Assembly: GCA_944392555.1 (NCBI GenBank)
Contig: CALXWZ010000006.1
Location: 5,543 to 69,542 of the forward strand
DNA length: 64,000 bases
Origin: an uncultured Alphaproteobacteria bacterium
GTDB lineage: Bacteria; Pseudomonadota; Alphaproteobacteria; CAAHEQ01; UBA3637
Reading direction: 5' to 3'
Position 1 is the stretch's first letter. Each line of letters starts with the position of its first letter. Below are positions 1 through 56,024 of this stretch, piece after piece. A program made the translations under genes and the position numbers. The notes beneath the pieces are model-generated. The model was not told where the DNA came from. It saw only the letters and a list, made by a program, of their open reading frames with translations, and did not search any database.

Positions 1-2385
1 AAACAATCTGGCTGCCAAATGCGGATTGATTTTATCAATCGGCATCACCTGCTCTGCAAAAAATTCATACCCCTCTTTTGTATGGAATGAACCCAAATTA
101 CCGCCGAACGCACCGATAACGGCTCTGACTTTATTCGGATTTTTAATATCAAATTTCGGATGTTTGACCAATTCTTTCACAATCGGCAACGCATTCTTTG
201 ACCCGTTGCGTGCTTGCACGGCGAACCATTTATTCAAAACCAAATCATCATCTTGATACCGTTCATAGAATGAATCCAACGCCTTTTGGGCTTGTGGCAA
301 ATCATTATTGACCAAGATATTCAACGCGGATAATCTATCCGTTAAATTATTTGAATTTTCAAATTGTTCAAAGACCAAATCTTTATTCTTTGTTAACGCC
401 AAATACCCGAGCGCCACATTTTTAATCGCCCGTTTGGCAAAAGATTCGTTATCCGGCACATACGGCCCGGCAATTTGATTTTGCTTATAAATACGCAATA
501 ATTCTTTTTCGTATTTCGTTGCAAATGCCTCGCGCATTATTTTTCTGACGCGTTTAATTTCAGTCATGGATACCGTATCCAATTTTTCAAACAATTCTTC
601 TTCGCTCGGCAATACGATGGCGCGTGCAATAAACGCCTTATCCAACCCGCGTTGCGTGAGATAACCGCCCAATGCCCGAATAACGTTCATATCCGGCTTT
701 TGCGCTTTTTTCATCACCATTTTAGCCATTGATTCAAGCGCATATTGGTGACCGACATCGTATCTGTTAAACAAATCCGAATCATATTTCATCAAGTGCA
801 AACGTTCTTCCTTCGTGTATTTAATATCCACGTTAATCGGAGAAGTAAAGAACCGATTGATGGATAACACCGGCTTGTAAGGCATATTTTTAAACGTAAA
901 CATTTGCTCTTTCTTGCTTAAAATAAACGTTCCCGTTTTAATATCTCTGCCGTCTTTACCTACAAGCCCGTAATGCAACGGAATCACAAACGGCTTCTTG
1001 CACGTTTTATGCGTTTGCTTTAAGGTAACGGTATAAACACCGTCGGCATAATCCGTTTTAACTTTCACCGTCGGACGCCCGGCTACCGAATACCATTGTT
1101 TAAATTGCGTTAAATCTTGCCCGGAACCATCTTCAATCGCACGCACGAAATCATCAATCGTTACGGCTTGTCCGTCATGACGCTTGAAGTAAATATCGCA
1201 CCCGCGCATGAAGGCATCTTTTCCCACAATCGCACGTTGCATCCGAATAACTTCCGCGCCTTTTTCATAAATTGTTGTCGTATAAAAATTATCAATTTCA
1301 TGATACGAATCGGGACGAACAGGGTGCGCCAACGGCCCATCGTCTTCCGGAAACTGGAATGTGCGTAATTGAACAACATCATCTATCCGACTGACGGCGC
1401 GCGAAAACGTATCATATCCGTATTCCGAATCCCGAAAGACCGTAAATCCTTCTTTTAAAGATAAGTCAAACCAACTGCGTAACGTGACTCTGTCACCGCT
1501 GTAATTATGGAAATACTCATGCGCAATCACATGTTCAATGTATTCGTATGTGGCATCCGTTGCCGTATCGGGAGAAGCAAGCAACGCCGCATCATTAAAG
1601 ATGTTTAACGATTTATTTTCCATGGCGCCGGCATTAAAATGCGAAACGGCCACAATACTAAATCTATTTAAATCATATTCCAATCCGAATACTTTTTCAT
1701 CCCATGCCATCGCGCGTTTTAAGGCCTCCATGGCAAACGTTAAGCGTTCGCCCTTGCCTTTTTCACAATATAAGTGCAAATCAACTTTTTTACCGGAGCC
1801 GGTTGTATATGTATCTTCAATGCTTGCTAAATCGCCGGCTACTAAGGCAAATAAATAACACGGTTTATTATACGGGTCTTCAAAAACAACCGTATCGCCC
1901 GTATCTTTAATTTTATTTCCGTTTGAAAGCAAAACGGGATACTTACCGCGCTCGGCGTGAATCGTTACGATAAATTTGCTCGGCACGTCGGAATGATCGG
2001 GATAATACGTAATATTACGGAATCCTTCCGGCTCACATTGCGTGCAAAAAATACCGTCCGACACATACAATCCCATCAACCGCGTATTTTCCGCCGGATT
2101 GATAACAACCGTTGTTTCCAGCACAAAGTTCGGCTTTTCGGGATTCAATGTCAACGTTTCATCCGTTAAAGCATATTCAAATTCCGTTAGCGGGCGCCCG
2201 TTAACCGCAATAGACTTTAACTCCATATATTGCCCGTTTAAAACGAGCGGTTTAGATGTATCGCAATTTTCAAAATGCAATTTGGCGGACACAATCGTTT
2301 TCGTCGGGTCCAATGTAAATTCCAACTCCGTCAACGGCAGTTGATAGTGGGGAGCCACATAGTCTTTACGATATTTTAATGTCAT
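1..2385 (-). CDS. pepN: Aminopeptidase N (M1 family); C-terminus runs off the window start
   Basis: Absent from the ORF track because it has no stop inside the window. My minus-strand translation from the ATG (complement of 2383-2385) reads MTLKYRKDYVAPHYQLP... It contains the GAMEN exopeptidase motif (SHFNAGAMENKS) and the zinc site HEYFHNYSGDRVT followed by LSLKEGFTVF. Confidence 0.9.
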   Translation of the reverse strand, partial: MTLKYRKDYVAPHYQLPLTELEFTLDPTKTIVSAKLHFENCDTSKPLVLNGQYMELKSIAVNGRPLTEFEYALTDETLTLNPEKPNFVLETTVVINPAENTRLMGLYVSDGIFCTQCEPEGFRNITYYPDHSDVPSKFIVTIHAERGKYPVLLSNGNKIKDTGDTVVFEDPYNKPCYLFALVAGDLASIEDTYTTGSGKKVDLHLYCEKGKGERLTFAMEALKRAMAWDEKVFGLEYDLNRFSIVAVSHFNAGAMENKSLNIFNDAALLASPDTATDATYEYIEHVIAHEYFHNYSGDRVTLRSWFDLSLKEGFTVFRDSEYGYDTFSRAVSRIDDVVQLRTFQFPEDDGPLAHPVRPDSYHEIDNFYTTTIYEKGAEVIRMQRAIVGKDAFMRGCDIYFKRHDGQAVTIDDFVRAIEDGSGQDLTQFKQWYSVAGRPTVKVKTDYADGVYTVTLKQTHKTCKKPFVIPLHYGLVGKDGRDIKTGTFILSKKEQMFTFKNMPYKPVLSINRFFTSPINVDIKYTKEERLHLMKYDSDLFNRYDVGHQYALESMAKMVMKKAQKPDMNVIRALGGYLTQRGLDKAFIARAIVLPSEEELFEKLDTVSMTEIKRVRKIMREAFATKYEKELLRIYKQNQIAGPYVPDNESFAKRAIKNVALGYLALTKNKDLVFEQFENSNNLTDRLSALNILVNNDLPQAQKALDSFYERYQDDDLVLNKWFAVQARNGSKNALPIVKELVKHPKFDIKNPNKVRAVIGAFGGNLGSFHTKEGYEFFAEQVMPIDKINPHLAARLF

Positions 2386-5988: not shown

Positions 5989-6285
5989 TTATCGTTCAAT
6001 ATTTTCCAGTGTTTCCCGAACACCTTCTTGATAAATTTTTTCATCTTCCGGGCATAGAATTTCCAACAGTTTATAAAGTCCGCCCGCATGTTTTTTTTCG
6101 TCTTCTATAATCTCATCCAATACGTTATGGACAGATTTATTTGTGGTACTTTCCATAATTTGCTGATAAATTTGGATAGCCTCAAATTCGGAGGCAATTG
6201 CAAATTTTATGGCTCTTAAAATCTCCACTTCCGATAAAGTATGTTTCGGTGAATATACGCTTTCAATTTGTGCAAATTCAGGCAT
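5989..6285 (-). CDS. Small ferritin-like (EncFtn/rubrerythrin-like four-helix) protein, 98 aa
   Basis: Internal ATG at 6285 preceded by AAAAAGGAGAAAAAAATG. Diiron-type E/ExxH pattern: ASEFEAIQIYQQ ... IIEDEKKHAGGLYKLLE. The upstream 58 codons of the track ORF lack any SD. Confidence 0.6.
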   Translation of the reverse strand: MPEFAQIESVYSPKHTLSEVEILRAIKFAIASEFEAIQIYQQIMESTTNKSVHNVLDEIIEDEKKHAGGLYKLLEILCPEDEKIYQEGVRETLENIER

Positions 6286-24061: not shown

Positions 24062-24535
24062 ATGAAAAATATACTTATCGGGATTTTAGGACTGGCACTT
24101 TGCGGTTTGGGAGTCATTTATTATCTTGAACATGAAAACGTATCACCTTGCGGATACGACAAAGAAGACGTCATTCAAACATTTCAAGACTGGTTAGCAA
24201 ATGGCATTAAAAACACCAACAAAACAGAACAAGAAAATCCAATAACGGTTCTTGGCATAAATGGCATACTTGAATACAACACTTCTCCTGAAGTTTTGGG
24301 ACAGAAAGTATACGAAGATATAAAAAACAGTCGTATTTGTAAGGCAACACTCATTGTTGACTTTACGCCTCTTGGAAAAAGCAGAAGTATTGAAGAAATA
24401 AATGTTCGGTTTCAAAAAATGCTTACGTCTCCCAACGAAAATGGAGATAAAGCACTATATTATTCTATGGCGGGGATTGATGTTGAGCAAATGCTCCAAG
24501 AAGCCATTCCGCTATACAAAAAATATAACGACTAA
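24062..24535 (+). CDS. Hypothetical exported or membrane-anchored protein
   Basis: 157 aa with GGAG 9 nt upstream. N-terminal hydrophobic segment ILIGILGLALCGLGVIYY. No recognisable domain. Confidence 0.55.
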   Translation: MKNILIGILGLALCGLGVIYYLEHENVSPCGYDKEDVIQTFQDWLANGIKNTNKTEQENPITVLGINGILEYNTSPEVLGQKVYEDIKNSRICKATLIVDFTPLGKSRSIEEINVRFQKMLTSPNENGDKALYYSMAGIDVEQMLQEAIPLYKKYND

Positions 24536-24684: not shown

Positions 24685-26799
24685 TTATTCTTTCAAAACG
24701 CAATAATTACCGTCCAATGTGCGTTCTTCATAACACTCCATACAGGCATCGGTTATATTCTGAACATTCACACGTTCTTCGGTATCGCACGGATAGCATT
24801 TATTATCTCTGCCTCTTAACGGGGCATCCGCCGGGCATTTCGGAACGCAGTAGTTATTGTATTTATTACGAGTATCGGGGCAACGTTCACAGCCGTCGTG
24901 AGTAAGACTGGAAACATCTATATTCTGTTCTTCATCACAAGAATAACAATCTCCATAATAACCTGTAAATGTTCCCTCTGGACAAGGTATAGAGCAGTAT
25001 AAATTAGCCCTTCCGCTTGCTACTCGATTGGAACAAATTGTGGCACATGATTCTGTTCCGGAAATATAAATAGGATTAGGATCTAAACAGCTGTAACACA
25101 TACCATCATCACCACGAATCTGATTAGTCGGACAGTCTAAAATACAATAACGATCTATTTGCCGTCGGTTTTGACACTGATCACAACCCATATGTGTCAC
25201 ACCATATACATTGATATTTGCTTCTATTTTACAAGAGACACACTCACCCAGATTTGTGGTAAATGATCCTGTTGAACAAGGAATCGAACAGTAACGATTG
25301 TGCTCTCCGTTTGCAATCCTATTCGAACATAGTAAAGAACACATATTCAAAGCATTATCCATAGGTATCGGATAGGGGTATTCACAATCATAACACTTTC
25401 CGTCATCTCCGCGAATTTGATTTACAGGGCAATCTAATATACAATAGGAACCTATTTGTTGACGATTTTTGCAACTTTCACAACCTCCCTGTTTCACCCT
25501 ATAAACATTTATATTTTCTGGGGTATTACACGAAAAGCACTGTCCGTCTGTGTTGGTAAAATATCCCAACTCACACGGAAGTGAGCAGTACTGATTTAAT
25601 GCACCATTTGCCACTCGATTTGGACACGTTTGTGTGCACCTATTCACTGCATCGCTCATTGCTATCGGATCAGTATACTTACAATCGTAACATTTCCCAT
25701 CATCTCCACGAATTTCTCCCTTGCATTTTAAGACGCATTTATTATTCCATATTTCTCTGTTTGGGCAAGCGTTGCAGTTTTCATTCACGCCCGTAACGTC
25801 AACCCCGTTTGCTTCCTCGCAAGTATAGCAATTCCCGTTTTTATCAATCAACGGTTTAAACCACGGGCAACATTGGTCGCCTGCCACATTACAACAATAG
25901 CCGTTCATTGTGGACGGACAACAATACGGCCCCGCCCACCTATCACTCGTGCAACAGACTTGACTCCCCGTTAAAATATCTTGCCTGCACCGTTCATTAC
26001 TCCCGCAGATTGAGACACATACACCCTCTGCCGAACATCTTGCACATTTGCTCGCACAATCGTCATCATTATGGCATTCTTGATATGGCAACATATCGTC
26101 TTCCAAGTGCGCCCCGTATTGGAAGATCATCACGGCTGTTGTTGTCGGTTCCCCTGCCTCTGTTAACCCGTCGCAGATACTTGTATTCCCATCGTATGCC
26201 AAATCGCCCACTTTCATAATAATCGGCAACGTCCATTCTGTCCGCAATATCATCTTGCATTCAGCTACCGGCACATTCTGCACTTCTATTTCAAAGTATT
26301 TCGGATCCTCTAACCAATACGCCGTTATCGGATACCCGAGACTTGTATATTCCCCCATTTCCATGACGATTTCGGGATTCTCGGGGTCGGTTGTATTATT
26401 ATCCGCAATCGGGGCGATTGCATACGCCCGCAAATTAATTTCATGCACCGTTTCATTTGCCCGATACATCGTCATCGCATACCGATAACCCATCATTCCC
26501 GCAACCGATAGCACACCGATCACCGCTAACACGCCCAGCATTTCTACCATACTCCGCCCGTATTCGGCCAAGCGCGCACCTCTTAATCTACGCACACCCT
26601 TTAATCCGCTCAATTCATCCAATCCATGTTGCGTTTGTGAATCTGCTAAACATTCCGCTTTTTGATTACTTTTCAAGCACGTCAGACTTATTTGATGCGC
26701 TGATTTTTTCTCTTGTTTTGCGCGATTCGCCTCAAATACACTGTTTTTTACTTTTTTTGCATAAAAAGAAGCCACGTTAACTATTTGTTTTATATTCAT
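24685..26799 (-). CDS. Prepilin-like N-terminus + pilin-sized module + cysteine-rich CXXC tandem-repeat domain (candidate modular pilin or surface adhesin)
   Basis: G/RSMVEMLGVLAVIGVLSVAG (Gly-1, Glu+5, hydrophobic helix) follows a leader of about 80 aa. The C-terminal ~470 aa hold about 60 Cys (hand count) in 99-aa repeats with CXXC pairs. Start set at ATG 26799 (GGGAGA 6 nt upstream); the track start is 26814. Confidence 0.8.
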   Translation of the reverse strand: MNIKQIVNVASFYAKKVKNSVFEANRAKQEKKSAHQISLTCLKSNQKAECLADSQTQHGLDELSGLKGVRRLRGARLAEYGRSMVEMLGVLAVIGVLSVAGMMGYRYAMTMYRANETVHEINLRAYAIAPIADNNTTDPENPEIVMEMGEYTSLGYPITAYWLEDPKYFEIEVQNVPVAECKMILRTEWTLPIIMKVGDLAYDGNTSICDGLTEAGEPTTTAVMIFQYGAHLEDDMLPYQECHNDDDCASKCARCSAEGVCVSICGSNERCRQDILTGSQVCCTSDRWAGPYCCPSTMNGYCCNVAGDQCCPWFKPLIDKNGNCYTCEEANGVDVTGVNENCNACPNREIWNNKCVLKCKGEIRGDDGKCYDCKYTDPIAMSDAVNRCTQTCPNRVANGALNQYCSLPCELGYFTNTDGQCFSCNTPENINVYRVKQGGCESCKNRQQIGSYCILDCPVNQIRGDDGKCYDCEYPYPIPMDNALNMCSLLCSNRIANGEHNRYCSIPCSTGSFTTNLGECVSCKIEANINVYGVTHMGCDQCQNRRQIDRYCILDCPTNQIRGDDGMCYSCLDPNPIYISGTESCATICSNRVASGRANLYCSIPCPEGTFTGYYGDCYSCDEEQNIDVSSLTHDGCERCPDTRNKYNNYCVPKCPADAPLRGRDNKCYPCDTEERVNVQNITDACMECYEERTLDGNYCVLKE
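24700..25790 (-). repeat. About 3.7 diverged tandem coding repeats of 297 bp (99 aa) inside the cysteine-rich gene
   Basis: Landmark CGAAT of the RGDDG codons recurs at 25115, 25412 and 25709 (exact 297-bp spacing). Protein units YCILDCPVNQIRGDDGKCYDC / YCILDCPTNQIRGDDGMCYSC and so on. Confidence 0.85.
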
Positions 26800-26813
26800 T
26801 TTCTTTCTCCCCA

Positions 26814-26831
26814 TTCTTCATAAACGTCCGT
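26814..26831. repeat. Left arm of a perfect 18-bp inverted repeat (TTCTTCATAAACGTCCGT)
   Basis: Exact reverse complement of 26977-26994. Lies in the 5' leader/start region of the cysteine-rich gene. Confidence 0.95.
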
Positions 26832-26925
26832 TTATGTAGAGGGAATAAAGCACGAAATCGTCCCATAAAAAGAAATCTCAAAAAATTATTATTTTACAAT
26901 AAGATAATCATATTTAAATTTTTAC

Positions 26926-26953
26926 TTGATTATTTTAAAAATACCCTTATAAT
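26926..26953 (+). promoter_or_regulatory. Near-consensus sigma70-type promoter TTGATT-16 nt-TATAAT inside the inverted-repeat-bounded segment
   Basis: -35 at 26926-26931 and -10 at 26948-26953. The same TTGATT -35 is seen upstream of rpmE, aspS and the 27927 gene. It points away from the cysteine-rich gene. Confidence 0.55.
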
Positions 26954-26976
26954 CCTCTTTATACTATATCATCTAG

Positions 26977-26994
26977 ACGGACGTTTATGAAGAA
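26977..26994. repeat. Right arm of the 18-bp inverted repeat (ACGGACGTTTATGAAGAA)
   Basis: Exact reverse complement of 26814-26831, with a 145-bp spacer between the arms. Confidence 0.95.
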
Positions 26995-27140: not shown

Positions 27141-27776
27141 TTACGCTGTTCTGTTTTGCTGTTGTGCCGCCGCAACCATTGTAAGCGAATCCGGTTGTTG
27201 CACGCCCGCATGTTCGCTGGCATGTTGAGCTAATGTCATTTTTGCATTCGGTGTCTGCGGTGCTGCTTGTTGTTGGGATTCCGCCGCACGCGCCTCCACA
27301 ATATCATCAGCCTCCTGACTACCTGTTGTCGATTGAATAACACGATCCAGCAAACCGGAACTATTAGCAACTTTTAACAAGAAACCGGCCCAACCACCAC
27401 ATGTGGATGACATAATTCCCGTACCGAATTTCGTTAAAGCAGCAGTTTGCTTTGCAGGCCCGTAAGAACCCCATGCGGCAAAGGCTTGCATCTTTAAATT
27501 CCCGATAAGATCACCATCTTTTAACTTTGATTCATCTTTGCGATACTCTTCGGCACCGATGATATCTCTCTGGTCCACACTCGCATACTTTGTTCTTTTA
27601 TCAAAATTCTCTTTCTTCTCCTGCCCCTCTTTTTGGATATCTTCAATATCTTGGCGCGTAACTTTTTGACCCGTTTGTTTACTTAAATCACCTAACATTT
27701 GCTCCATTCGAACATCATCTAATTGAATGGCTGTGTTTTCATTCATACTTTTCATCAACGTGCTGTTTTGAACCAT
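27141..27776 (-). CDS. Hypothetical protein (charged N-terminus, Q/A-rich C-terminus)
   Basis: 211-aa ORF followed by a terminator. No recognisable motif. Confidence 0.6.
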   Translation of the reverse strand: MVQNSTLMKSMNENTAIQLDDVRMEQMLGDLSKQTGQKVTRQDIEDIQKEGQEKKENFDKRTKYASVDQRDIIGAEEYRKDESKLKDGDLIGNLKMQAFAAWGSYGPAKQTAALTKFGTGIMSSTCGGWAGFLLKVANSSGLLDRVIQSTTGSQEADDIVEARAAESQQQAAPQTPNAKMTLAQHASEHAGVQQPDSLTMVAAAQQQNRTA

Positions 27777-27926: not shown

Positions 27927-29195
27927 GTGAGTATCGAGCGTATTTGTCAAAGATTTCAAGAGGTTTATAATTTAAAAGATAGTAAAGGAACTGCTATCGG
28001 GCATGATTTTTTCAAATTCAGCAGTGATCCCGATATCCGCGCCGAAGAAATGGCTGACTTTAAAGGCTTTCAGGTTTGGAAAAATCCCGGCGAAATTATG
28101 GGTTGGACGAAACACTTGAACTGGATAGGATCCTCTGCTCCTGCTGCCAGCCGTTTAGCCCGTAAAGTAGCAATAGATACAACAAACCTCACGCCTGAGT
28201 CTTGGAAATTGTTACTTGATAAATGCGCAACTTTATATCAAACGGAAAGCGAAGAAGACCATTTTGTTGCCGATTTGATTCTATTTCGCATTGCACTAAA
28301 TCGAGACAAAGGCGAGGCTAATACCTATTGGCAAAATTCTTCACCGCTCTATTCCATCACATTATTGAGTTATCTCTCTGAATTTGGTCATATCTACCCC
28401 GATCCAAAGGGGCAAGAATATTTAAAATTTCTGCAAGAGGAATTGTCTTCCGGCAAGTTAGCGATTACAAAGCAATCCGAGCAAAAACAAGAAACAACAA
28501 ATCAAAAACAACGGCAAATATCAGCCATTAAAACCGAAAATGCCTCAAATGAAGAAATTTTGGCAAATAATAAAGAAATTTTAGCTAAACTCAACACGCT
28601 TCAAAAAGAAAATCAATCCACTTCCGCCGATAATACTCCAAACGGAGTTAATCCAGCAAACCAAGCGCTTGATGAACAATCTCTTTCCGTATTAAAGCAA
28701 AACTTAAAGCAGGCGCAATCAACACTGATTACAAAAGATGACGTTAAAAAGATTCCGGGAATTCAACAAGCCGTTCAATCTCTGACTAATACAACCGCAT
28801 CGCAAGCAACCATCAATGAAGATCCGAAAGACACGCAAAAGAGCATTCAGCAGGTAGCTGTTGCACAACAACAAGTTGAAGAACAAGAAGGGTTTTGGTC
28901 TAAATGGGGATGGGTTATCGGTATTGTTGCAACGGCGGGTCTCGGCTTTTTGGCTTGGTACTTTGTTAAAAAATATAAGGATAAAGCTGATGAAAGCGCG
29001 GCTCAATCCAGCGCATTGAAAGATGAAATAACTTCTTTACAAGACGAAATCAACGATTTATCCAATTCTGACGGTTCATCAACAAATACCAACACGGGAA
29101 ACGACGATACGCTTGGGAATAATGCCGTTATTGTGAATACCGATACCATCAATCAAATCAACGAAATTATTTCAAACAGCAATCAAAGAACTTAA
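27927..29195 (+). CDS. Hypothetical membrane protein with Q/N/T-rich coiled-coil region and a single TM near the C-terminus
   Basis: GTG start with AAAGGGG 6 nt upstream. TM segment WGWVIGIVATAGLGFLAWYFV. Low-complexity region QKQETTNQKQRQ... and a heptad-like tail (ALKDEITSLQDEINDL). Confidence 0.6.
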   Translation: MSIERICQRFQEVYNLKDSKGTAIGHDFFKFSSDPDIRAEEMADFKGFQVWKNPGEIMGWTKHLNWIGSSAPAASRLARKVAIDTTNLTPESWKLLLDKCATLYQTESEEDHFVADLILFRIALNRDKGEANTYWQNSSPLYSITLLSYLSEFGHIYPDPKGQEYLKFLQEELSSGKLAITKQSEQKQETTNQKQRQISAIKTENASNEEILANNKEILAKLNTLQKENQSTSADNTPNGVNPANQALDEQSLSVLKQNLKQAQSTLITKDDVKKIPGIQQAVQSLTNTTASQATINEDPKDTQKSIQQVAVAQQQVEEQEGFWSKWGWVIGIVATAGLGFLAWYFVKKYKDKADESAAQSSALKDEITSLQDEINDLSNSDGSSTNTNTGNDDTLGNNAVIVNTDTINQINEIISNSNQRT

Positions 29196-29251: not shown

Positions 29252-29911
29252 ATGTCAACAAAAGGCGAAAATTCAACAAATCATACACAATCTTCACAAC
29301 ATAAAGCACAAAATGAGAGCCCAAAATCAAACCATTCATCTTTTGGGCGTAATACACTCCTTGCCTTAGGGGGATTATTTGCACTCGGTGGTTCGCTTTT
29401 CCATGTTATTCAATATGCGTCTCGGAGCAAAAACGAATCAACGAGAATCGGATTGGTTGTAGGAGATTATCTTGCAAAAACACAGGCAGAAAACACAGCG
29501 CTTACACAACGGACACACGAAGCCTCTCAAAACCGCACCTCTTATGAAAAAGAATGTAAGGATATGGCTCTTATCGTTGTGCAACTCGCTGACAAATTCA
29601 AACAAAAATCACCCGAACAAATTATTGACAGAGCCTCTTTTTTATACAAAAAGCAACAAAAAGGGAACCCAAAAGCCGATATTATTTTAGAGGATATGCA
29701 AGCTATTAAACATAATTTTACGGGAACAACAAAAAATCTCAGAAATCTGATGACCTGCTATCACACGTCACCCGAAATACCGTTTTCCGACCACTTAACG
29801 GATTCTGCCGTTGTGCGAGACAGAATTTATCGCTATGAAACAAAAGTGCGCCAATACTTATTGAAAGAATATAACATTATGCAAAAAAGCATGCTTCAAA
29901 ACAGTAAATAA
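29252..29911 (+). CDS. Hypothetical membrane-anchored protein
   Basis: S/Q/N/H-rich N-terminus, a TM segment LLALGGLFALGGSLFHVIQY, then a domain of about 150 aa of unknown family. Confidence 0.6.
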   Translation: MSTKGENSTNHTQSSQHKAQNESPKSNHSSFGRNTLLALGGLFALGGSLFHVIQYASRSKNESTRIGLVVGDYLAKTQAENTALTQRTHEASQNRTSYEKECKDMALIVVQLADKFKQKSPEQIIDRASFLYKKQQKGNPKADIILEDMQAIKHNFTGTTKNLRNLMTCYHTSPEIPFSDHLTDSAVVRDRIYRYETKVRQYLLKEYNIMQKSMLQNSK

Positions 29912-54197: not shown

Positions 54198-56024
54198 TTA
54201 AATGCTGTTTCTATCTAATTGATTTGAATCATACTTATTTGCACCCGTTGATTTATCAATATCATCATATACGCAATACGTCTGAGCCAAAGCCGTCACG
54301 TCAGTACGTACCGTTTCATCGGGATAATAGAAATTCACCGTCCATTCGCTCGCAGAAGCTGTTTGATCCGAATTGGCAACATTCCCTGTTTCATAACCGG
54401 ATTCTTTTGAATCGATTTTAACAAGAATACCCGCATTTGCTACCGAGATTTCATCTGAAACACCATCCGTTCCCGCAGCCATTTTTACTTCTTGTTCATC
54501 TACGGTAAAACGGTGATTATGGTCACCTGCACTGCCATCTTCATCTTCCGTATAAGATGAAAATTCTTCCGTTTTTAACTTGCCTTGAATATCCGTAGCC
54601 GTAATACGCACTTTTTCCCAATTGACGGGCGTTACGATAATCGCGGGCGCGTATCCTTTCGGGCAAGCCGGCATAGATACCTTATCACCTCCGGAAACAG
54701 ACTGAACCGTTTTACTGATATAATTCGGTAAAATTTCGCTCAATCTGGCTCCTCCGCGGGATTCAAGCCGTATATCTTTCATAACAGAGGTATACACCGG
54801 ATCAATCTTATACGCTACATCCTCACCTTCCGCCGAGCTGGCCTTTTCCGCCTTAATGTTGGAAGTTAATGCTCCCTCGCCCAGTGTGAGCGTTTCAACT
54901 TCATCCGACGTCAAAGACCTTAATCCCGTCGTTCCCAAATCTCTGTTTGTTTTTGAGATAACTTCTCCTTTTCCGTTAATGATAACACGCGCTGTTCCAT
55001 CAGTATCGTAGACTTCTATCCGATTGTTTTTAGATGTTTCCGTTGACGTATCATCCGTTCCGTAGGCAAAAATCCCGACGGCTTGCTTATTTTCATCGGC
55101 ACTGTCGCTGTTTCTAAACCCGATAACAAGCCCTCTTTTGGCATAAACCAATCCGGCTGTTGAGTTATCCGTTGTTTCACCCGATGAACCGACCCAGAAT
55201 AACGGATCGCATGCGCCCGAATTACCGCCGACACCGTATATTTCATCATCAACGGCTGTATAACCATCCGTGCCGACTTCCATCGTATTATGCTTTTTCG
55301 TATAGCAATTCTCGCCACCCACGCCGACCGAGAAATAATCGGCGGAATGTAATTTCTGGAATGCCAAATTATCCGGAATGGTCACAAATCCGGAGCTGTA
55401 ATCTTCCACAATATATTCGGGAACATACGTATCCATTCCCGTTGTGGCAACATATATCGCTGTTACGCCGTCAACCATTGCGCCGTCCAAATCAGATTTT
55501 AATTGCGCAAAATCGCTGTTCAATTCGTCAACGGTCACATGCCATCCGCCGGCCACACCATCCAAAGCGCTATCCGCTCCGCCCCGATAAATACCACCGT
55601 CGGCACCGATAATGTTTGCAATCCGCGCCGCTCTCTTCAACCCCATTTTTTCAGGAATGGATGAGATATTCGGCACGATAAATCCTTCCAAAAAGTTCGG
55701 TTCACCGCCAATCAAACAAAGCGTTAAGTTATAGCCATCATTTGTATCTTCCATACCCCATGGCAAATAGTCATCCAACACTTCATTATTTAAGCGTGCG
55801 CACCCCTCGCCCCGCATCATGAGAGCTTGTTTGTTGGTCAAAATATAGGCTGCAAACGCCTCTTTAACGGCACGCACCTCTGAGGCAATGTTAATATTTT
55901 CAACTTCCTCATTCCGTGAAAGAACCTGTCTGAACAATAACGGTCCCAAAACACCGAGCAAAGCAATCACCGCGATCACTTCTACGATAATTGCGCCTCT
56001 TTCGTTCTCTTTTAAATTTCTCAT
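54198..56024 (-). CDS. Large (608 aa) protein with canonical prepilin-type N-terminal cleavage/methylation signal
   Basis: MRNLKENERG/AIIVEVIAVIALLGVLGPLLF: short charged leader, Gly-1, Glu+5 and a 20-residue hydrophobic helix. SD GGAGAGGA upstream. The remainder is G/D/T-rich with no family recognised. Confidence 0.7.
   Translation of the reverse strand: MRNLKENERGAIIVEVIAVIALLGVLGPLLFRQVLSRNEEVENINIASEVRAVKEAFAAYILTNKQALMMRGEGCARLNNEVLDDYLPWGMEDTNDGYNLTLCLIGGEPNFLEGFIVPNISSIPEKMGLKRAARIANIIGADGGIYRGGADSALDGVAGGWHVTVDELNSDFAQLKSDLDGAMVDGVTAIYVATTGMDTYVPEYIVEDYSSGFVTIPDNLAFQKLHSADYFSVGVGGENCYTKKHNTMEVGTDGYTAVDDEIYGVGGNSGACDPLFWVGSSGETTDNSTAGLVYAKRGLVIGFRNSDSADENKQAVGIFAYGTDDTSTETSKNNRIEVYDTDGTARVIINGKGEVISKTNRDLGTTGLRSLTSDEVETLTLGEGALTSNIKAEKASSAEGEDVAYKIDPVYTSVMKDIRLESRGGARLSEILPNYISKTVQSVSGGDKVSMPACPKGYAPAIIVTPVNWEKVRITATDIQGKLKTEEFSSYTEDEDGSAGDHNHRFTVDEQEVKMAAGTDGVSDEISVANAGILVKIDSKESGYETGNVANSDQTASASEWTVNFYYPDETVRTDVTALAQTYCVYDDIDKSTGANKYDSNQLDRNSI

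Follow-up and report, generated by a model that had tools for sequence, protein, structure and literature searches.

We describe here a gene on the reverse strand of a 64-kb stretch of contig CALXWZ010000006.1 (64,000 nucleotides, analysed as a whole and called the window below) from an uncultured Alphaproteobacteria bacterium. With a probability of roughly 0.6, we consider its product to be a modular adhesin of the type IVb pilin class, one member of a phase-variable repertoire. The open reading frame (ORF; 24685..26814, with the stop codon at 24685-24687) encodes 709 amino acids from an ATG at 26814, and residue numbers below refer to this form. The probable start is a second ATG at 26799, which lies behind GGGGAGAAAGAAA with a GGAG ribosome-binding site and opens a 704 amino acid form (MNIKQ...). 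This is the form reported by public gene callers (P0001), its MNIKQIV... start is common to the paralogues, and its first position is also the end coordinate given in a preliminary description of this DNA. The protein consists of a basic leader of approximately 80 amino acids, a signal G|RSMVEMLGVLAVIGVLS, a 159 amino acid module and 464 amino acids that hold 62 cysteines. A search of the whole protein against Pfam and NCBIfam gave nothing useful; a match to NCBIfam TatB_Rickett (E-value 0.055, 13.7 bits against a cut-off of 75) was set aside as noise.

Prepilin-type signal and type IVb pilin-like module

The signal core (26485..26559, reverse strand) reads Y-G|RSMVEMLGVLAVIGVLSVAG. Gly86, at 26557-26559, takes position -1, Arg takes +1 and Glu91 takes +5 (G86|RSMVE91); they are followed by MLGVLAVIGVLSVAGMMGY, a hydrophobic alpha1-N segment that runs to V-A-G-M-M-G-Y. 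Glycine, glutamate and hydrophobic stretch are thus placed as in a class III signal. The preliminary description had pointed out this likeness to prepilins, and the near-invariance of the motif shows that it is no chance match. The G, R, S and E show no variation in an alignment of 69 sequences (G7, R8, S9 and E12 of alignment A1). A strict pattern recovers G-R-S-M-V-E-M-L-G-V-L-A-[VI]-I-G-V-L-S almost unchanged from 101 of the 120 homologues listed, and a looser one recovers the motif from 113. In 230 distinct genes the codons for G, R and S vary synonymously, including switches between CGN and AGA and between TCN and AGY, which indicates that the motif is translated and selected as protein. 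The same variation rules out a reading in which M89, the Met of GRSM, is the true start and the “GRS” part is a ribosome-binding site.

How widespread is this signal? In the reference genome collection, a degenerate DNA pattern for the GRSM motif finds more than 118 loci. Four of them belong to a bin named Lachnospiraceae, and the labels of the rest read Alphaproteobacteria or proteobacteria. Most carriers are pilin-sized (mature length 120-220 amino acids, 2-6 cysteines), while a minority of 300 to more than 1,600 amino acids is cysteine-rich. In related genes the nearest in-frame ATG is most commonly 10 codons from the motif and usually 4-20, and the commonest leader among the listed homologues has eight residues (e.g., MQTKINEI|G); to judge from their sequences, these are ordinary prepilin leaders. 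Nine GRSM genes have no upstream in-frame ATG at all. Many small pilin genes (L034, L036, L041, L065, L072 and others) have no ATG nearby, and the in-frame translation upstream of them resembles repeat-element peptides (..RVKPENDK.., ..SGMT.., ..VQDDRES|G), which points to REP-like elements, or to starts other than ATG, immediately ahead of the signal.

The leader of the window's protein (26560..26799, reverse strand) is 80 amino acids long from MNIKQ, the length first proposed for it, and ends in ..AEY before Gly(-1). It is basic (pI 10.1), measures 71-93 amino acids in the window's lineage and is conserved in more than 30 paralogues. The long leader and the Arg at +1, which the preliminary description had called atypical, suit the type IVb pilins, with their variable +1 residue and longer leaders, more closely than they suit the classical GFxxxE type. 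Towards its 3' end, the leader (approximately 26569..26625, reverse strand; approximately 6160..6225 in the related locus L001) shows an imperfect 9-nt periodicity, GGATTRNGN, read as G-L-x. The number of these units differs among paralogues, giving leaders of 71-93 amino acids, and changes in unit number keep the frame.

The leader is probably translated but weakly constrained, as far as its sequence tells. In six copies its frame has no stop codon, compared with 7-11 and 2-5 stops in the other two frames, and in simulations of drift at the observed divergence the frame stays open in 9-21% of trials per copy. This maintenance of the frame, together with the position of the ON-state promoter described below, upstream of both the ribosome-binding site and the MNIKQ start that it serves, favours translation. 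The case for a mere untranslated region is that substitutions in the leader are spread evenly over the codon positions (14, 14 and 18, against 2, 2 and 32 in the pilin module) and that in five of seven copies a TTG with a good ribosome-binding site lies four codons before the Gly, a start that would give MAEY|.

Behind the signal follows a type IVb pilin-like module (26080..26556, reverse strand; residues 87-245) made of a 57-residue helix and a beta-sheet; its length is 159 amino acids, against the approximately 140 first estimated. Modelled with AlphaFold from 69 sequences, residues 80-250 reach a predicted local distance difference test (pLDDT) score of 87.4, with the helix at fragment residues 3-59, followed by a four-stranded sheet, in the lollipop arrangement of pilins. 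A Foldseek search of the PDB gives ranks 1-16 to type IVb pilins without exception, namely CofA (as part of the CFA/III filament), PilS of S. Typhi and TcpA, with a best E-value of 4e-4, a probability of 1.0 and modest TM-scores of 0.3-0.47. A cysteine pair, C186/C214, is invariant in the alignment of the module and recalls the D-region of pilins, which is bounded by a disulfide that would have its counterpart here. A non-Phe residue at +1, a longer leader and a Cys-bounded C-terminal region are the marks of the type IVb class, and all three are present. Although the target itself matches neither PilS (PF08805) nor Bundlin (PF05307) in Pfam, small proteins with an identical N-terminus do. Comparison of the target module with the pilins of a pilus operon in related genomes by hhalign gives an E-value of 1.9e-27 over its full length; with the helix left out, the globular part still reaches 1.6e-3, and its alignment has a common F-x-I...C...W core. 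The model bears out the pilin fold expected for residues of approximately 85-240 and predicts the middle module to be a type IVb pilin by fold. The earlier idea of a pilin module with a grafted cysteine-rich module is supported and can be sharpened to the type IVb class.

The cysteine-rich rod

Of the 66 cysteines in the protein, two are in the leader, two in the 160 amino acid middle part and 62 in residues 246-709, where they make up 13.4% of all residues. A hand count had put about 60 of them in the final 470 or so residues, in close agreement. They form 14 CXXC and 12 CX3C motifs (26 pairs), and the CXXC motifs at residues 375, 474, 573 and 673 recur approximately every 99 amino acids. The first cysteine-rich segment (25831..26079, reverse strand; residues 246-328) has 15 cysteines, all within residues 247-316, with four CC doublets in a ladder CC-x9-CC-x7-CC-x6-CC. 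These cysteines are nearly invariant in alignment A3, and the segment is modelled as stacked beta-hairpins. The ladder has a spacing similar to that of granulins, a relationship that we rejected for want of profile or PDB sequence support. The remainder (24688..25830, reverse strand; residues 329-709) resolves the 99 amino acid repeats that had been recognized earlier into eight units of approximately 49 amino acids with six cysteines each, except for the last unit, which has five. Two kinds of unit alternate, A (CX2C..CX3C..CX3C) and B (CX2C..CX2C..CX3C), an A+B pair being the 99 amino acid super-repeat; the three super-repeats are 43-59% identical. Tandem Repeats Finder detects no tandem repeats in the DNA, which has diverged, and the repetition is found at the protein level only.

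The AlphaFold model of residues 241-709 has a pLDDT of 92.5 and contains only short hairpins and short helices. In the family alignment, approximately 70 columns of cysteine are either invariant or conserved to 90% or more. No Pfam model matches the rod in the target or in 51 relatives, and a sequence search of the PDB gave no match, in keeping with the earlier view that the repeat domain falls outside any described bacterial family. A Foldseek search with the rod returns megalin/LRP2 (E-value 1.5e-5), the cysteine-rich domains of IGF1R and the insulin receptor, 4-1BB, NELL2 and ErbB2, all at TM-scores of 0.07-0.19; TNFR, EGF and furin-like repeats are among these weak matches. Matches at such low TM-scores indicate generic cysteine-knotted hairpin repeats, as far as a model can tell. 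The likeness to furin-like or GCC repeats and to the variant-specific surface proteins (VSPs) of Giardia, which the preliminary description had raised, appears superficial, with no profile match and no fold match above a TM-score of 0.19. From the fold class and from the even count of cysteines (62 in all, in sixes per unit) we infer that the rod is disulfide-bonded. A thioredoxin-like secreted protein with the motif WSRHCVPC (TlpA/ResA-like by eye) lies beside type IVb pilin genes in two relatives (L061, 1160..1702, forward strand; L043, 6917..7441, reverse strand) and may be relevant to periplasmic thiol-disulfide chemistry.

A HMMER search of 1.84 billion representative proteins found 144 clusters with the rod module at E-values of 1e-3 or less, which, where named, come from Alphaproteobacteria genomes assembled from gut metagenomes. 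Some of them have the module behind diverged G(R/K)(S/T)xxE pilin N-termini and others behind ordinary Sec signal peptides. The latter (P0244, P0255, P0263, P0266 and P0271, of 540-840 amino acids and from this bacterial group) indicate that the six-cysteine module is an independent extracellular domain, untied to pilins. Shorter paralogues carry EGF_Teneurin-like repeats (P0113 and P0117: EGF_Teneurin or EGF_TEN) or a Mucin2_WxxW domain in its place, which indicates that the pilin handle is combined with several kinds of extracellular module. RGD triplets occur at residues 369, 468 and 567 (approximately 25114..25710) within a repeated block IRGDDG(K/M)CY and are kept in the 94%-identical copy discussed below; they are a possible integrin-type ligand motif. 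They are not a feature of the family: 99 of 120 relatives have none, and the 21 that do are confined to the closest subfamily.

Paralogues and a putative invertible promoter

The exact signature EY|GRSMVEM occurs in 19 stretches, 16 of them in BRZ_DT__bin56, the metagenome-assembled genome (MAG) that represents the species in the reference genome collection. This MAG has at least 16 genes of the family, on at least 11 contigs. Every copy in it that could be judged is large and cysteine-rich, with up to 873 mature residues and 78 cysteines, and the paralogues fall into three pilin-module subtypes. For the pilin module, the synonymous divergence (dS) is 0.35-0.57 against the paralogues and 0.49 against a 94%-identical copy in the MAG; for the rod it is 0.9-1.9 against the paralogues and 0.23 against the 94%-identical copy. 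This contrast indicates that homogenisation among loci affects the 5' part, and that the rods are old, differ from one another and are subject to purifying selection. The ratio of nonsynonymous to synonymous divergence (dN/dS) is 0.04-0.2 throughout (pilin module 0.04-0.1, rod 0.06-0.2), and positive selection on the rod was not seen in these pairwise comparisons. The 94%-identical copy (L001, 5908..8097) stands between an L28 gene and a block with a Xer-like recombinase and PriA, with BatD also in its surroundings, while the window's gene stands beside AspRS. Nearly identical genes at different loci in two strains suggest that copies or cassettes move between paralogous loci.

Directly upstream of the ORF lies a putative invertible promoter, or inverton (26814..26994, without strand). 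Two 21-nt inverted-repeat arms (26814-26834 and 26974-26994), 95% complementary, surround a 139-nt AT-rich spacer. Within the spacer is the best sigma-70-like site of the region, TTGATT-16-TATAAT (26926..26953, plus strand; 10 of 12 positions matched), which points away from the gene; the window's copy is presumed to be in the OFF orientation. Inverted repeats around a promoter segment immediately upstream of a gene are, on sequence grounds, characteristic of an invertible promoter. These arms and this segment recur upstream of approximately 16 paralogues in BRZ_DT__bin56. In a census of the promoters, 15 copies, the window's included, face away from their gene and one faces it. In this one (L221, encoding 743 residues with 76 cysteines) the spacer has been turned into its exact reverse complement from one inner arm edge to the other, and its promoter, approximately 55 nt upstream of the MNIKQ start, points towards the gene. 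In three further lineages, different inverted repeats stand in the same geometry before cysteine-rich GRSM genes, with spacers of 127 nt, 139 nt and approximately 120 nt (the last with a 22-25-nt repeat, in L003/L228).

Small serine or tyrosine recombinases act on invertons: Mpi, of the Bacteroides invertons, is a serine recombinase, and fimS of E. coli is a known inverton. A 240 amino acid serine recombinase (Resolvase and HTH_7 domains) is encoded on contig 13 of BRZ_DT__bin56 (L003, 2911..3633, reverse strand), 6.3 kb from a cysteine-rich paralogue and beside a PIF1-like helicase. We regard it as a candidate master invertase and no more; Xer-like and small tyrosine recombinases were also found in this MAG.

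Could the segment be something other than a switch? It might be the remains of a miniature transposable element, or a regulatory palindrome duplicated together with each paralogue, and the flip in L221 would then be a one-off rearrangement or a misassembly. There is a single clean flipped copy among approximately 17, its arms are more degenerate than the others (81% complementary), and a second flipped case sits in a palindromic contig end. Yet the flip is exact between the inner arm edges, the segment contains the only near-consensus promoter, whose direction changes with the flip, and the genome encodes a small serine recombinase. Moreover, the recurrence of the same geometry at the same place with different repeats in three further lineages points to selection on the architecture. 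We therefore think it unlikely that the segment is not a switch. The second flipped case belongs to a 3.6-kb metagenomic contig (L234) that opens with a near-perfect palindrome of 126 nt, with arms at 22..147 and 275..400, each carrying the 5' end of a GRSM gene, around a 127-nt promoter segment. It could be either two divergent pilin genes with one switch or an assembly artefact of mixed orientations.

Pilus machinery, alternative readings and known systems

Small GRSM proteins, one to three at a time, are encoded in a conserved operon of CAG:495 and many of its relatives. The operon further encodes a TcpQ-domain lipoprotein, a secretin lipoprotein, a PilO homologue (Pfam PAP_PilO), a 485 amino acid protein without an assigned function, a T2SSE ATPase, a T2SSF platform protein and a PilS/Bundlin-like protein of 201 amino acids; its gene content is that of the R64 thin pilus and of the Bfp/Tcp class. 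Its GRSM pilins match Pfam PilS (3e-16) and Bundlin (2e-13), and it is to these that the N-terminus of the window's protein is homologous. Relatives of the ATPase occur at 356 places in the collection of species-representative genomes. We surveyed the best 80 of these loci, all of which are from gut or rumen MAGs of Alphaproteobacteria type; 65 of the 80 have GRSM pilins of 164-209 mature residues. The clade also has a single-domain family of A24 prepilin peptidases. A pattern for these peptidases has no match in the 80 operon loci, i.e., within 10 kb of the operon, and one peptidase gene lies approximately 6 kb from a cysteine-rich GRSM gene on the same contig. BRZ_DT__bin56 holds, besides its large family members, two small GRSM pilins with leaders of 5 and 8 amino acids. 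TrbC/VirB2-like genes (type IV secretion pilins) flank the type IVb operon in 58-59 of the 80 loci (e.g., L149, 1504..2641, reverse strand), and a small tyrosine recombinase of FimB size lies approximately 9.5 kb upstream of the pilus ATPase in at least nine loci (e.g., L161, 414..923). As in IncI plasmids, the operon may be part of an element of the conjugative or integrative kind, or may descend from one.

We propose the following working model. The signal G|RSMVE and its hydrophobic helix would insert the protein into the inner membrane, and an A24 prepilin peptidase would cut after Gly86. The 159 amino acid module would then dock into a type IVb pilus built by a machine of the R64/Bfp/Tcp kind. 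There the protein would be a low-abundance subunit, most plausibly at the tip, and would show outside the cell a rigid rod of approximately 460 amino acids, presumably disulfide-knotted, as an adhesin or ligand-binding module. Paralogues with a common promoter, leader and pilin module but diverged rods would be switched ON and OFF as single variants by a site-specific recombinase acting on the promoter segment.

Several observations weigh against this model. No pilus ATPase, platform protein, secretin or peptidase gene was found in the 64-kb window or its contig flanks, nor in approximately 25 loci from BRZ_DT__bin56 (approximately 300 kb of the species examined). This MAG is not among the best 80 of the 356 ATPase loci, and in the samples retrieved the genomes with the operon and those with cysteine-rich members do not overlap. 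The Pfam N_methyl (PF07963) and TIGR02532 profiles, of which the latter had been proposed as a check, do not match the protein at an E-value of 1 or less, and N_methyl matches just two of 51 relatives, weakly (E-value approximately 0.009). We know of no pilin with an 80 amino acid leader, and the even spread of substitutions over the codon positions of this one is unlike that of a constrained coding region. A rigid rod of 460 amino acids is too large to be repeated along a filament and would allow tip or sparse incorporation only. That the organism is anaerobic and has an Fe-only hydrogenase bears on the formation of disulfides. Finally, the flipped state of L221 is a single clean case at a different paralogous locus, not one locus in both states, and that of L234 lies within a 126-nt palindromic contig end and is possibly an assembly artefact. 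Wider searches with a divergent ATPase (2,856 matches) and for peptidases (156 matches) yielded no usable link to the window's species, and a synteny comparison found no genes in common between the window and the flanks of the pilus operon.

The absence of machinery near any cysteine-rich gene examined raises the question of whether the signal serves for export and anchoring only. The protein would then be anchored in the inner membrane as a periplasmic, surface or short pseudopilus protein, delivered by a type II secretion-like or pilus machine or by Sec/YidC. Dozens of diverse proteins in these genomes have the same N-terminus, a diversity resembling that of the large prepilin-signal families of Planctomycetes and Verrucomicrobia, and the six-cysteine module behind Sec signal peptides evidently needs no pilus. 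Against such a role, the globular pilin domain is conserved too, with a dN/dS of 0.04-0.1 and a type IVb fold, and the Glu at +5, which matters for filament assembly rather than for membrane insertion, is invariant; a periplasmic location would also be hard to square with phase-variable diversification. We consider an anchoring role alone to be quite unlikely. Least probable in our view is a rod stabilised by metal, or scavenging it, through its CXXC/CX3C pairs (Zn, or Fe as for Giardia VSPs): the 26 pairs and an anaerobic host with an Fe-only hydrogenase and rubrerythrin, in which extracellular disulfides are less favoured, would suit it, but the fold matches are repeats of the disulfide-knotted EGF, TNFR and furin-like kinds, the cysteines number six to a 49 amino acid unit and are even in total, and neither His/Asp partners nor a known zinc-ribbon profile were detected. 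Metal binding would in any case concern the chemistry of the rod alone and is compatible with display on a pilus.

It is tempting to extend the pilin-adhesin model to a surface variation of VSP type that is based on pili, an extension that we hold to be possible rather than probable when all its parts are taken jointly. A genome of approximately 2 Mb would have at least 16 interchangeable cysteine-knot “spears” for one type IVb handle, and an invertase would keep one or a few of them ON. A clonal population could in this way resample its tip adhesins against ligands of host mucus or cells or against partner microbes, or evade immunoglobulin A, and the unusually long cytoplasmic leader would give this lineage an additional control over processing.

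The window's genes include the housekeeping genes of an anaerobic diderm (AspRS, GltX, SHMT, SecDF, MdoG, MlaD, Fe-only hydrogenase and rubrerythrin), and among the approximately 47 ORFs of the window that were scanned, all housekeeping or of unknown function, there are no pilus, type II secretion or Tad genes. The genes flanking the target (27141..27776, reverse strand; 27927..29195, 29252..29911 and 24062..24535, forward strand) encode proteins that are rich in Gln, Asn and Ser or membrane-anchored and have no Pfam match. Another prepilin-like N-terminus, unrelated to that of the target, reads MRNLKENERG|AIIVEVIAVIALLGVLG, has its Gly and Glu at -1 and +5, and begins a 608 amino acid protein without a Pfam match (54198..56024, reverse strand). 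Its neighbours (56048..57754 and 57903..59615, reverse strand) encode a membrane-anchored Laminin_G_3 protein of 568 amino acids and an SLT lytic transglycosylase, and the gene order is kept in the P0059 genome (L010). The named homologues of the target all come from “Alphaproteobacteria bacterium” MAGs of human, ruminant and rabbit guts, including CAG:495, and the genome source names show this group to be widely distributed in gut metagenomes of humans, ruminants, rabbits and birds. To our knowledge, none of these gut Alphaproteobacteria has been cultivated, and a literature search found nothing on the GRSM motif, the pili or the surface biology of this group.

The nearest functional analogues would seem to be the PilV shufflon adhesins and the CofB/TcpB tip pilins, while the regulation appears most like that of the Bacteroides invertons. 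The PilV/Rci shufflons (R64, R721 and TP114) are likewise of the type IVb class, and the relatives' operon has a PilN-type secretin, a PilO, a PilQ-type ATPase, a PilR-type platform and a PilS-type pilin. PilV of TP114 is a type IVb minor pilin adhesin whose variable C-termini alter binding specificity; as here, a constant pilin N-part is joined to alternative C-parts, and the variant is chosen by site-specific DNA inversion (PMC9045228). In our family, by contrast, the variants are separate, full-length and dispersed genes, and inversion would affect a 139-nt promoter segment rather than coding 3' cassettes. The variable part measures 460-870 amino acids of cysteine-rich repeats, compared with 69-113 amino acids in PilV, and the genes are chromosomal and scattered among housekeeping genes, with no sfx-like sites or rci identified. 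CofB (CFA/III of enterotoxigenic E. coli) and TcpB (TCP of Vibrio cholerae) also combine a type IVb module with large extra domains and are low-abundance initiator or tip subunits that present a binding surface (PMC8179133; see also PMC5207764). They differ in that their extra parts are beta-repeats and beta-sandwiches without cysteine knots, and in that there is one gene per operon, inside the pilus operon itself, with no phase variation by promoter inversion.

Streptococcus sanguinis PilB (vWA) and PilC (lectin), which the preliminary description had cited as models, are alike in that a functional module is grafted on a pilin module for display on filaments. Their pili are not known to belong to the type IVb class, and the module grafted here, unlike theirs, has no database signature. 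Modular pilins occur widely, over 1,200 proteins being counted in 264 architectures, in a catalogue defined by the IPR012902 N-methylation motif (PMC8179133). The GRSM family fails that profile and would therefore be missed by censuses of modular pilins based on it. In regulation, the likeness is to the Bacteroides invertons of capsule and fimbrial genes (Mpi) and to E. coli fimS. Both have short repeats around a promoter segment of approximately 140-300 bp directly upstream of surface genes, and in Bacteroides there are many such loci per genome, with related repeats, in a gut habitat. Here the host is an alphaproteobacterium, the cargo would be pilin adhesins and the recombinase is only a candidate. 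The Giardia VSPs, with furin-like, EGF and TNFR repeats, offer an analogy only: a dense array of CXXC, a rod of small cysteine-knotted units and a multigene family of which few members are expressed at any one time. The present proteins differ in their bacterial origin, in lacking a C-terminal membrane anchor or CRGKA tail and in having no profile match and TM-scores of just 0.1-0.19.

If our reading is true, the rod would be a new extracellular cysteine-knot repeat domain, confidently modelled and without a signature in the databases, and the GRSM proteins would be a large and overlooked group of modular pilins. The gene family would represent a new route to variation at the pilus tip, in which many whole genes each have a private invertible promoter, conceptually between the PilV shufflon and the capsule invertons of Bacteroides. 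It would also offer a testable account of how a commensal with a small genome may vary its attachment or antigenicity.

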